This document shows, one piece after another, positions 504-4,318 of a stretch of DNA of 4,318 bases; position 1 is the stretch's first letter; the number at the start of each line of letters is the position of its first letter. The stretch lies in IMG/VR virus record IMGVR_UViG_2698536313_000008; one strand, written 5' to 3'. Under the pieces are notes generated by a model. It saw only the letters and a list, made by a program, of their open reading frames with translations. It was not told where the DNA came from and did not search any database. Origin of the DNA: a virus (Duplodnaviria; Heunggongvirae; Uroviricota; Caudoviricetes). The translations under genes and the position numbers were made by a program.

Positions 504-1319
504 TCATGGCATGGCCATGAGCATTTTCACGTCCGCATCACCGTCTGCTGACGTCTGTGACACGCCACCCCGCACCGCTGCCGGTGAATGATTCGCCATG
601 AAATGTTCAAACAGGGCGGTTGTGGATGCAGAGACCGGTTCTGCTTTATCCGGCGATGAGGACAGAATGTCGCGGGCAGCCTCCACCGTCATTCCGGGAA
701 ACGCCGCCAGTTTTTCAGCCTGCGCCTCAGCCCCTTTTGCCTCATCCAGAGCCATAATCTGATCACGGAGTGAGGGTCCGGCATCCGCCAGTGGTGCAGC
801 CGCAAGGATCGGGCGGGCTTTTTCCACCGTCATCTCCGGCATCGCCGCCAGCGTTGCCGCCAGTTGTTCACGACCTTTAGCCTCTTCACACGCCATAATG
901 CGATCGGCTTCACTCTGCGTGGATGCCACCGGCTGCTGTGGTGCTGCCGCGGTCAGAATCGCCCGGGCCTGTTCAACGCTCATGCCCTGTTGTCCTGCCA
1001 GCATCGTGGCAAGGTGTTCACGTCCTTTCGCTTCCTGACACGTCAGGATCCCCATCACTCGCTGGTTCTCCTGCGCGGCAGCTTCCGTTGCAGTTAATTG
1101 CGGCATAGTGCCTCCTGTATCATGTGTGTTCAGCGCCGCAGCCATCACGCTGATGGCATCCGACGCATTGATTAATTCATCCGCCAGCCCGGCCTCAATG
1201 CCGGACTGACCTTCAAAAACGGCGGCCTCTGTTCCCGTGACTGCATCAACAGACAGACCGGTATACATCGCCACTTTTTCGGCAAACATCCGGCGCGCCG
1301 CATCAATCCGCTGCTGCAT
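504..1319 (-). CDS. Nu3: Nested in-frame scaffolding protein (lambda Nu3-like), translated from an internal start of C; 271 aa if it begins at Met231 of C
   Basis: In lambda, Nu3 shares frame and stop codon with the 3' part of C. Here the internal ATG at 1319..1317 opens MQQRIDAARRMFAEKV, matching my recollection of the lambda Nu3 N-terminus, with AGAGG about 11 nt upstream. Other in-frame ATGs at 1289..1287 and 1268..1266 are alternatives. Start assignment is by analogy only. Confidence 0.5.
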   Translation of the reverse strand: MQQRIDAARRMFAEKVAMYTGLSVDAVTGTEAAVFEGQSGIEAGLADELINASDAISVMAAALNTHDTGGTMPQLTATEAAAQENQRVMGILTCQEAKGREHLATMLAGQQGMSVEQARAILTAAAPQQPVASTQSEADRIMACEEAKGREQLAATLAAMPEMTVEKARPILAAAPLADAGPSLRDQIMALDEAKGAEAQAEKLAAFPGMTVEAARDILSSSPDKAEPVSASTTALFEHFMANHSPAAVRGGVSQTSADGDADVKMLMAMP

Positions 1320-2009
1320 GTCCTGGCGAACCTCTGCCGGCAACGCTTCAAACTGATTGCCATCCACCTTGTGCGCCCCTGAGTAAATCAGCGTGATATC
1401 CACACCGGCCTGCGCCAGATGACCGGCATAGCTGACATGGCTCATCATCACGCCAATGGAGCCGATACGGGATGTCTGGGTAACCAGCCGTCGGGAGCAG
1501 GCCGACGCCAGCAGCATGGCTGCAGAACAGGCCGTGTCATTGCACAGTGCCCAGACCGGCTTCTGCTGACGGAGGCGGTAAATCATGTCAGCACAGTCAA
1601 ACGCACCGGCGGCCTGCCCGCCCGGACTGTCAATGTCCAGCAGTACACCCCGCACCTGGCTATCCGCCATTGCCTGCTGAAGACAGGCGACAATGCCGTC
1701 ATAGCCTGTCATTCCGGAAAATGGCCGCATACCCCCCAGCCGGTGCACCAGCGTGCCTGTCACCGGCAGTACAGCAATACCGTTCACCACCCGGTAAACA
1801 CGGGCCGGTCGTTTACCTCCGGCCATGTACTCGTCCGTTTCAGCCAGCATTCCGGGTGCATCAAGCTGTACCTGCTGTTGTGGTACCGAAAGACTTGCTG
1901 CCCCCATCTCGCGCCCGAGCGCGCAAAAGAAAACCCGCGCATAGGCGGGCTCCAGAAGCAGCGGTTCATTGAATGCTGCGGCAATAATGTGTGAAAGATT
2001 ACGTCTCAC
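504..2009 (-). CDS. C: Prohead protease / scaffold fusion protein (lambda gpC family, S49/ClpP-fold peptidase N-terminal domain plus scaffold C-terminal domain), 501 aa
   Basis: N-terminus MRRNLSHIIAAAFNEPLLLEPAYARVFFCALG matches the lambda gpC N-terminal region. Conserved blocks PVWALCNDTACSAAMLLASACSRRLVTQT, IGSIGVMM and ITLIYSGAHKVDGN fit the S49 peptidase family. Start is a GTG at 2009..2007, 10 nt after a GAGGAG Shine-Dalgarno, and it overlaps the portal 3' end by 11 nt (lambda B/C also overlap). Confidence 0.88.
   Translation of the reverse strand: MRRNLSHIIAAAFNEPLLLEPAYARVFFCALGREMGAASLSVPQQQVQLDAPGMLAETDEYMAGGKRPARVYRVVNGIAVLPVTGTLVHRLGGMRPFSGMTGYDGIVACLQQAMADSQVRGVLLDIDSPGGQAAGAFDCADMIYRLRQQKPVWALCNDTACSAAMLLASACSRRLVTQTSRIGSIGVMMSHVSYAGHLAQAGVDITLIYSGAHKVDGNQFEALPAEVRQDMQQRIDAARRMFAEKVAMYTGLSVDAVTGTEAAVFEGQSGIEAGLADELINASDAISVMAAALNTHDTGGTMPQLTATEAAAQENQRVMGILTCQEAKGREHLATMLAGQQGMSVEQARAILTAAAPQQPVASTQSEADRIMACEEAKGREQLAATLAAMPEMTVEKARPILAAAPLADAGPSLRDQIMALDEAKGAEAQAEKLAAFPGMTVEAARDILSSSPDKAEPVSASTTALFEHFMANHSPAAVRGGVSQTSADGDADVKMLMAMP
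621..1058 (-). repeat. Three diverged tandem repeats (about 141-150 bp, 47-50 aa each) inside the scaffold domain of C/Nu3
   Basis: Protein units begin ILTCQEAKGREHLATMLAGQQGMSVEQARAILTAAAP, IMACEEAKGREQLAATLAAMPEMTVEKARPILAAAP and IMALDEAKGAEAQAEKLAAFPGMTVEAARDILSSSP. The matching DNA is visible on the plus strand, for example gttcacgtcctttcgcttcctgacacg at about 1015..1045 against gttcacgacctttagcctcttcacacg at about 866..892, roughly 80 percent identical. Confidence 0.8.
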
Positions 2010-3591
2010 GTGGTGTTGTCTCCTCTTCCGGCCTGCGACTCTCCGCTATCTGCTGCTGATACGCCTGCGCTATCCACACCGGACGTGAGAGTCCAGCTTT
2101 TTCCCGCTCTGCAGATTCCCTGACCTGCTGGCGGAAAATGTCCTGATAATCTTCGCCCATCAGCGCCAGCTCTTTCTCATACGTGCTCAGTCCGGCCTCA
2201 ATGCGCATCACTGATTCCTGAACCTCCTTGAGCCCGTCAATGGCCATTCTTCCGGCTCCAATCCACTCAGCCCGTGACCAGGCTGATCGCGCCTGATAAA
2301 AATCAAAACGTGCCCGTGGCGGACGGATAATCCCCCGAAGAAGTGCCTCTTCCAGCCAGCAGGAAAACATCTGCGTGGCCAGCCGGGACGCAATAAATTT
2401 TCGCCGCCCCATAAAATAGCGCCACGACTCATTGGCGGATGCGCGGGCACTTGAGTAACTGACCTTCGAGTAATCACGGGACAACTGTTCGTAGGAAACG
2501 CCAAGACCGGCGGCGATATACCGCAGCAGCGCCTGTTCAAGCGCCGAAAATCCATTGTCTGAATCCTGCGCGGTCTGAAGTTTCAGATCATCACCGGGGA
2601 AAAGGTGCGGAATTTTGACACCGCCCAGCGTCACGCTATTCGTGTCATACCAGGTGGAGAACTTATCCAGAATATTAATAAGCGGATTATCCTTCTGCCC
2701 CTGCGGCGCACCGGCGATATATTCAAAGGCCTTTTCGGTATCAAGGTCACTTTCAATCGTCGCTGCATACATCGCCTTCACTATGGCCGACTGAAGCTGT
2801 GTTGCCTGCAGGGAATCCAGCATCTTCAGCCGTTCCATAACGCTGTAAAACTGATTGGCTCCACGGGTCTGCCCGTCCTCCACCGGCTCGAAAATATGCA
2901 GCATGGCCGGACGCCCGGTGGGTAGTTCACGCGGGATCCGTTCCCATCGTCCACTCCCGGAGCGAGGAAAATCATCCTCACAGATATGGTACGCAACGGC
3001 ACGGCCATATCGATCAACCTCCACACCGGCCCGCAGAAAACGGTTCCCGATACCGTGTCCTGGCGTGTCCACCCGTTTCGGACTCACGGCTTTAAAACGC
3101 GTACGAAACAGTTGCGTACTCTCCGTATCCCAGACCGGCTGCACAAAGATTTCGCCGTTAAACGCATGAACGCCCACACCTTCACGGATAAATTCCGTAA
3201 ACGTGCGTTTCCCTTCCACGTCGATCTCACCAAACATCCCTTCTGCGTATTCTGACCAGGCCGCCTCCACCTCATCGACAAAACTTTTTGCCGCGGTCTC
3301 CCGCATCCCCAGCCAGCGCCAGTTCGGACGGTAGCTGATCAGAAACATATGCCCGACAATGTGATCCTTATGCAGGGCCACCGCATTGGCCGCTATTCCG
3401 TTATTGCGCACCAGATCATCTGCACGGGCATTCCCCAGACGCAACGCGGGCAGCAGGGCCGCATCGGCACTCTGCGAGGGTGGCAACCACTCCGCCATTT
3501 GCCCGCCAAATCCTGCACCGCCACCGGTGTAGCTGAGGCTCTCCCGAAGCGGAACGCCGTTCACATCAATCAGGACAGGCGTTCGTTTCAT
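1999..3591 (-). CDS. B: Portal protein (lambda gpB family), 530 aa
   Basis: Translation aligns along its length with lambda gpB (533 aa): GNARADDLVRNNG, FEPVEDGQTRGAN.FYSVME, LQSAIVKAMYAATIES, LLRYIAAGLGVSYEQLSR, YSSARASANESW.YFMGRRKF, WIG.GRMAIDGLKEVQE and IEAGLSTYEKE. ATG at 3591..3589 overlaps the W stop as ATGA, with GAGG 4-5 nt upstream. Confidence 0.93.
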   Translation of the reverse strand: MKRTPVLIDVNGVPLRESLSYTGGGAGFGGQMAEWLPPSQSADAALLPALRLGNARADDLVRNNGIAANAVALHKDHIVGHMFLISYRPNWRWLGMRETAAKSFVDEVEAAWSEYAEGMFGEIDVEGKRTFTEFIREGVGVHAFNGEIFVQPVWDTESTQLFRTRFKAVSPKRVDTPGHGIGNRFLRAGVEVDRYGRAVAYHICEDDFPRSGSGRWERIPRELPTGRPAMLHIFEPVEDGQTRGANQFYSVMERLKMLDSLQATQLQSAIVKAMYAATIESDLDTEKAFEYIAGAPQGQKDNPLINILDKFSTWYDTNSVTLGGVKIPHLFPGDDLKLQTAQDSDNGFSALEQALLRYIAAGLGVSYEQLSRDYSKVSYSSARASANESWRYFMGRRKFIASRLATQMFSCWLEEALLRGIIRPPRARFDFYQARSAWSRAEWIGAGRMAIDGLKEVQESVMRIEAGLSTYEKELALMGEDYQDIFRQQVRESAEREKAGLSRPVWIAQAYQQQIAESRRPEEETTPRET

Positions 3592-3770
3592 AACCTCACT
3601 CCCAGCGGACGACGGCGACGGCGGGTTGTCCCCAGTACCGACTCCGCATCATTGATCGCCCGGTTAAGCTCATCCAGAGAAGCTGCCGTATATTCAATTC
3701 TGCGACCATCTTTCTGGACAGACACCACCCGTTTACCGGTTAATAAATCAAGGCGCGCCTGACGCAGCAA
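3588..3770 (-). CDS. W: Head completion / head-tail joining protein (lambda gpW family); 3' end certain, 5' end uncertain (provisional TTG start at 3770..3768, about 60 aa)
   Basis: The C-terminal 61 residues of the 149-aa track ORF (PLLRQARLDLLTGKRVVSVQKDGRRIEYTAASLDELNRAINDAESVLGTTRRRRRPLGVRL) align with lambda gpW ([24 protein letters not shown]...RRRGP). Stop TGA at 3590..3588 overlaps the portal ATG. No in-frame ATG or GTG exists at the position predicted by homology; the nearest in-frame candidate is this TTG. The rest of the 149-aa ORF is out-of-frame overlap with terminase, not W. Confidence 0.6.
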   Translation of the reverse strand: MLRQARLDLLTGKRVVSVQKDGRRIEYTAASLDELNRAINDAESVLGTTRRRRRPLGVRL

Positions 3771-4318
3771 GGGTTGGCCGGGTCGTCTCTTCTTCCCGGG
3801 ATTTTGCCAGTACAGCCAGATCAAGCTGCCAGCGTTGCACGGACACACGTAATGCCGCGTAGGCATACACCAGGCAGTCCAGCGCTTCGTTACGCCGCTT
3901 TTTGTTATCCCACAGCAGACGCATCTTTCCTTTTTCCCACTTCTCCACAAGCTCTTCCGCCACCAGTTGCTGCGCCTCTGTCTGCGAAAAAATCTCCGGA
4001 TCATCAGGAAAACGGATGGCATACGACGTGGCTTCATCCGCAGGCGTGGGATCGGCTTTCATACGGGCATAGAGAATTTCTTTTGCGGTGTCCGTCCCCA
4101 CTTCGCACAGATACACGCCCCGCTGATTGCGGGTTTTTGGCATGGTGATCACCGGCTTGCCATAAACAGATGCACCTTTTACCGGCAGCACCCGGAAAAC
4201 ACCGTGTTTTTTTGACCTCTGATAGACAATTTCGCCATCGATCCCCCCGGTGTCCCAGCAGACACGGGAAATGGTCATTTCGGTTCCGTCTGCATGGCGG
4301 TATTTTTTGTTGATCGCC
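3748..4318 (-). CDS. A: Terminase large subunit, C-terminal about 190 codons (partial; N-terminus lies beyond the right edge)
   Basis: Translation (KYRHADGTEMTISRVCWDTGGIDGEIVYQRSKKHGVFRVLPVKGASVYGKPV...RRNEALDCLVYAYAALRVSVQRWQLD...) matches the C-terminal region of lambda gpA. The frame stays open from the Met listed at 4278 through to position 4318, so that Met is internal. Stop TGA at 3750..3748. Confidence 0.9.
   Translation of the reverse strand, partial: AINKKYRHADGTEMTISRVCWDTGGIDGEIVYQRSKKHGVFRVLPVKGASVYGKPVITMPKTRNQRGVYLCEVGTDTAKEILYARMKADPTPADEATSYAIRFPDDPEIFSQTEAQQLVAEELVEKWEKGKMRLLWDNKKRRNEALDCLVYAYAALRVSVQRWQLDLAVLAKSREEETTRPTLAASGAP

Follow-up and report, generated by a model that had tools for sequence, protein, structure and literature searches.

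Does this lambdoid element begin its head-tail adaptor gene W at a non-canonical TTG codon buried in the end of the terminase gene, or has something gone wrong in the sequence at the point where the two genes meet? The question arises from a stretch of viral DNA of 4318 nt (hereafter the window, meaning the whole stretch analysed), on whose minus strand lies a phage-21-like head operon of lambdoid type, represented by its left end (Table 1). Here the terminase frame ends ...EEETTRPTLAASGAP with a TGA at 3750..3748, its C-terminal residues being ...TRPTLAASGAP, and the W frame reads ...PGKKRRPGQPLLRQARLDLLTGKRV..., the D of its DLLTGKRV motif lying at 3749..3747. Upstream of that motif (start 3749) the W frame stays open (PGKKRRPGQPLLRQARLD), but in the 18 codons before DLLTGKRV it offers no ATG or GTG, only a TTG at 3770..3768, and we found no Shine-Dalgarno sequence at a usable distance from this TTG. 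An earlier note, made from the letters alone, had drawn attention to the terminase stop, the position of the motif and the lone TTG, and all three match our reading of the minus strand; its statement that A and W of lambda overlap as ATGA is likewise borne out by the lambda record (A 711..2636, W 2633..2839). The supplied window does show this junction pattern, but the organism's DNA is not what the pattern describes.

Table 1. Features of the window, in window coordinates, from the terminase end of the operon to the capsid end
Feature	Position	Strand	Basis or remark
Large terminase subunit, phage 21 gp2 / lambda gpA type, C-terminal part to ...EEETTRPT(L)	3770..4318	-	PF20454 GpA_nuclease, E 2.1e-29; open at contig end 4318
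Placeholder base	3769..3769	.	replaces ~61 bases: T/G + AAAGAACTGGCAGCGAAGCTGTCCGGAGGAGTGAATGGTTACAGTCGCTGAACTGCAGG + C/T
False terminase tail, AASGAP + TGA	3748..3768	-	W codons 10-16 in the wrong frame
W / gp3 head-tail adaptor, codons 10-68 + stop (LRQARLDLLTGKRV...GVRL-stop)	3588..3767	-	PF02831 gpW, E 2.2e-20
Portal protein, lambda gpB type, 530 aa, intact	1999..3591	-	PF05136
S49 peptidase/scaffold, lambda gpC type, 501 aa, intact	504..2009	-	PF01343
Head decoration protein, lambda gpD type, 115 aa	120..467	-	PF02924
Major capsid protein gene, first 21 codons, cut at contig end	1..62	-	L026 gene 4257..4318; position as PF03864 capsid genes in L017-L025

The two genes on either side of the junction are readily recognised from what is left of them. 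The 189-aa terminase fragment carries the gpA endonuclease domain of lambda-type large terminases (103 bits), and many E. coli prophages match its coding segment at 100% identity over 550 nt. The W fragment scores 72.6 bits against the gpW profile, for which the curated cut-off is 22.5 bits, and covers profile positions 10-66 of 66; the W of an intact relative covers positions 3-66. W also occupies the place expected of it, between the terminase and portal genes, with its stop overlapping the portal start as ATGA (W ends at 3588; the portal ATG is at 3591). What the window does not contain is a complete W reading frame of ~68 aa with its own start and ribosome-binding site overlapping the terminase end: start, ribosome-binding site and codons 1-9 are all absent. 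Nor does the terminase frame end in the C-terminal prohead-binding tail (TL..LA..LSG...; PF05876/PF20454 type), reading TLAASGAP and stop where relatives read TLKELAAKLSGGVNGYSR and stop.

Further along the operon, the exact portal protein is listed in 8607 blocks of a public sequence collection. The C-terminal third of the C protein (504..1100, minus strand) contains three imperfect repeats of ~40-45 aa (...QEAKGREHLATMLAGQQGMSVEQARAILTAAAP / ...EEAKGREQLAATLAAMPEMTVEKARPILAAAP / ...DEAKGAEAQAEKLAAFPGMTVEAARDILSSSP), which Tandem Repeats Finder did not detect in the DNA, where they are too diverged; this repeat part is also the portion of C that varies most among relatives (97% identity, with small indels, against L005-L014).

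The origin of the window emerged when the 501-aa C protein was looked up as an exact match in the public collection, which gave 10 places. The window is the reverse complement of the whole 4318-nt contig CYFE01000109.1 (locus L026) from draft assembly GCA_001284065.1, and the two sequences are identical at 4317 of 4318 positions. The sole difference lies at window position 3769, where the record has an N and the window has an A on the plus strand, and hence a T on the minus strand. The contig contains no other N, and this one sits exactly at the terminase/W junction, which reads CCAACCCT-N-GCTGCGTC; the chance of a lone N falling there is about 1 in 4318. The TTG at 3770..3768 spans this junction, with position 3769 as its middle base, and exists because the junction itself creates it. 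Because the window is an entire draft contig, both of its ends are assembly break points; each lies inside a gene (terminase at 4318, major capsid at 1), and the two are probably boundaries of sequence common to several co-resident prophages, so that whatever lies close to either end has to be judged in that light.

The N bears at once on the reading in which nothing is amiss, namely that the locus is a natural family variant whose W, of ~60 aa, uses TTG 3770..3768 as its start and overlaps a shortened terminase by 23 nt. The reading frame of W does run on open through this TTG, and the 60-aa product would keep gpW profile positions 10-66, losing only residues 1-8; yet the middle base of the proposed start codon is an N in the source record, which effectively refutes initiation there.

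To see what the junction looks like elsewhere, we compared the 401 nt around it with phage records and with 5,426 complete E. coli genomes. Matches were found in 19 phage records (98.3-99.5% identity), phage 21 (M81255) included, and in 1,861 of the genomes, at 2,979 places (median 2 places per genome, maximum 5). Every match listed fell into two pieces that together span 461 bases, 60 more than the query. Compared base by base over its 4318 nt, the window differs from the nearest complete genome, UPEC129, by 11 substitutions and one indel, which lies between 3769 and 3768 and consists of 60 bases absent from the window (AAAGAACTGGCAGCGAAGCTGTCCGGAGGAGTGAATGGTTACAGTCGCTGAACTGCAGGC); its placement is unambiguous, and this comparison revealed no microhomology at the junction. 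The number of missing bases is 60 if the N is disregarded and 61 if it is taken as a placeholder. In relatives these bases encode the last 16 terminase codons and the stop, include a GGAGG ribosome-binding site 5 nt before the W ATG (an RBS annotation in M81255), and hold that ATG and the first nine codons (MVTVAELQA; MVTVAELQALRQARLDLL...) of a 68-aa W. Aligning the junction with relatives, the check that the earlier note had proposed, thus located the problem; the indel that it had suspected of rearranging the junction is accurate as a description, since 60 or 61 bases are missing relative to every relative, without there being any real rearrangement. Slippage between the imperfect repeats GAACTGGCAGCG and GAACTGCAGGCG in the missing segment was considered and rejected, as these are 46 nt apart, not 60.

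Loci that share the C protein give a similarly uniform picture. Among the places shown, nine contigs besides the source encode the identical 501-aa protein; a complete 68-aa gpW gene is present in all seven that reach upstream through W (L017-L019, L022-L025), and L020 and L021 start within or downstream of W. The terminase has its full 642 aa in all five C-protein loci whose contig contains the complete gene. In two other E. coli genomes (L011:887-2814 and L012:1066-2814) the terminase gene of the homologous prophage is called in two parts, of 488 and 157 aa, or as a 582-aa product that lacks N-terminal sequence; these calls may reflect genuine prophage decay or sequencing errors.

Independent sequences of this element do not reproduce the junction that the window shows. 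A 33-mer spanning it had no exact match in IMG/VR, GTDB species representatives or JGI metagenome contigs, and a stringent single-piece megablast across it had none in the 5,426 complete E. coli genomes. For a TTG-initiated W, this means a junction found in none of the 19 phage records or 1,861 complete E. coli genomes that have the region, combined with the lack of a usable Shine-Dalgarno sequence where relatives have GGAGG 5 nt before an ATG. Two contigs that seemed to yield the same hypothetical 60-aa TTG-initiated product turned out merely to start at CAGGTGCTGCG, the intact sequence in a GTG variant, with the gene called at the end of the contig. With an N inside its start codon, no Shine-Dalgarno sequence and a junction that no relative shares, the short W put forward in the earlier note has to be given up, and we attach almost no probability to the family-variant reading.

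A stretch that is missing from one sequence and present in all others might also have been deleted. A genuine 60/61-bp deletion in one prophage copy would have taken away the terminase C-terminus along with the start of W and its ribosome-binding site; the prophage would be a decaying one, defective in packaging, and the N in its record a coincidence. Decay of prophages by small deletions is common, and the remaining genes of the contig are all intact, so that a single lesion would be recent; in principle, too, the single N could be an ambiguous base call that happens to fall exactly where bases were really deleted. With 60 or 61 bases missing, the length is at or near a multiple of three, like that of a tolerated in-frame deletion, and this we count against the reading of the junction as a gap. 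The consequences of a deletion would also be clear. Sixteen terminase residues would be lost, the conserved TL..LA..LSG motif among them, and W would lose residues 1-8 along with its ribosome-binding site. Helix alpha-1 of lambda gpW comprises residues 4-22 (PMC10721106), and the lambda mutant Aam42 indicates that the last 5 terminase residues are needed (PMC4856287), so that a loss of 16 would be expected to inactivate packaging. If real, then, the deletion would point to a prophage that is defective and would hold no interest as a variant in start codons: a phage-21-like prophage would have been inactivated in one hit, with the prohead-binding tail of the terminase cut and the W start gone together. 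A viable phage that tolerates both losses by means of a non-canonical W start is far less likely.

Against a deletion stand the position of the N exactly at the junction, the lack of microhomology there, the failure to find the junction in any other collection searched and the nature of the two edges. The first missing base is polymorphic, CTT versus CTG (L007, L017), and so is the last, GCG versus GTG (L003, L004); no third variable site was seen in the ~130 nt around the junction, and the two edges fall on just these. The right edge is, moreover, a place at which other contigs end. The collection has 40 blocks that list a partial W product starting LRQARLD, and in 10 of the 10 places shown it lies at a contig end, the contigs starting at GCTGCGTCAGG, the first base of the right-hand segment of the window, or within 2 nt of it. 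These contigs come from unrelated assemblies, among them NCBI drafts, Logan, SPAdes assemblies with NODE_ names and metagenome assemblies with k127 names, which makes the right edge of the gap a place where assemblies break repeatedly. A recurrent break at W codon 9/10 is consistent with a common C/T polymorphism (GCG/GTG, Ala9Val) between co-resident prophage copies. Weighing these observations, we regard a genuine deletion as quite improbable, and the one-hit inactivation that it would represent as no more likely. Across many independent draft and metagenome assemblies, contigs (L003:1-12, L004:1-12, L027-L036:1-5) end 0-5 nt from one and the same W position (codon 9/10; window ~3768), the break point just described.

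We consider it highly likely instead that the anomaly at the terminase/W junction, with its N, its missing bases, its uniqueness, its polymorphic edges and the recurrent contig ends at its right edge (each of them directly observed), is an assembly artefact and not a property of the phage: an unresolved repeat bubble bridged by one N. The strain would carry at least two copies of the phage-21-like head region that differ at two sites; in E. coli genomes that have this region, two or more copies are usual. The variants, T/G and C/T, being 60 nt apart and hence closer than a k-mer, would have formed a compound bubble that the assembler left unresolved; assembly probably failed at this particular stretch because co-resident copies differ at its first and last bases. 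Shared flanking contigs would stop just before the first variant and resume just after the second, and a scaffolder or gap closer may then have abutted the two pieces, so that the contig would be made up, on the minus strand, of a 549-nt and a 3768-nt piece with the single N as the join. In a final step, preparation of the window would have turned the N into an A on the plus strand, A being the default for N in many 2-bit encoders.

Some short-read scaffolders and gap closers behave in this manner. Where adjacent contigs are estimated to overlap or abut but SSPACE finds no overlap, it places a single 'n' between them, and a gap that GapFiller does not close can be left with one N. The junction resembles the single-N joins of these programs in that one N likewise stands for tens of bases, in a contig that is short, repeat-derived and broken at variant sites; we offer the attribution of the N to software of the SSPACE/GapFiller type as a lead. 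The earlier note had named a sequencing or assembly error among its explanations, and this was the right class of cause, although the error would be not a 1-nt frameshift but a 61-nt stretch collapsed to an N; the 1-nt correction that it had envisaged as restoring an ATG-initiated W was not on the right track.

A different technical mishap, the loss of one 60-base line from a flat file, would also account for a junction without microhomology from which, compared with relatives, exactly the standard line length is missing. Once the N counts as a placeholder, however, the number is 61, not 60; the deposited public record already has the junction, so any such loss predates the preparation of the window; and assembly, rather than formatting, is where the N, the break that recurs among contigs and the polymorphism at both edges all point. 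We find such a file-handling accident scarcely credible.

If the junction is a collapsed gap, as we favour, each oddity of the window has a simple origin. The AASGAP tail arises because the collapse shifts the terminase reading frame into W codons 10-16. The genuine terminase tail is missing because of the gap, and its absence is no evidence on the real protein; the W start, ribosome-binding site and codons 1-9 are missing because of the N, and their absence is silent on the real gene. The true locus is expected to be an ordinary one, with a terminase of 642 aa and a W of 68 aa that starts at an ATG and whose gene overlaps the end of the terminase gene by 17 nt. The window thus says nothing new about W or the terminase, and the feature is not real biology. 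What the case offers is a lesson in quality control: one N of a draft contig, turned into a base without notice, gave rise to a convincing but false non-canonical start and gene overlap. In windows cut from draft assemblies, Ns need to be kept or flagged, and other windows prepared likewise may hide an N as an A, creating false codons and false joins; anomalies at gene junctions should be compared with close relatives before they are read as biology.

The closest known counterpart of the locus is the gene 2/gene 3 junction of phage 21 (M81255 / OL657228), which matches the 401 nt surrounding the window's junction at 99.3% nucleotide identity; the gene order of phage 21 (terminase, W, portal, C, D, E) is that of the window. 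The W residues of the window are those of the E. coli prophage form and align without gaps, one residue off, to phage 21 gp3, the product of gene 3, a head completion protein and homologue of lambda W. Unlike the window, phage 21 and the prophage relatives have the extra 60 nt, a terminase ending in KELAAKLSGGVNGYSR and stop, a W starting MVTVAELQA and a 17-nt overlap between the two genes, and the window lacks phage 21's extra 60 nt only because the gap collapsed. Lambda (NC_001416) is more distant, its W being 49-50% identical in a gap-free alignment of 68 columns and its terminase ~59% identical in the C-terminal region. The two types also differ in how terminase and W are translationally overlapped, through a 4-nt ATGA in lambda and through 17 nt in the phage-21 type, and in neither does W start at a TTG.
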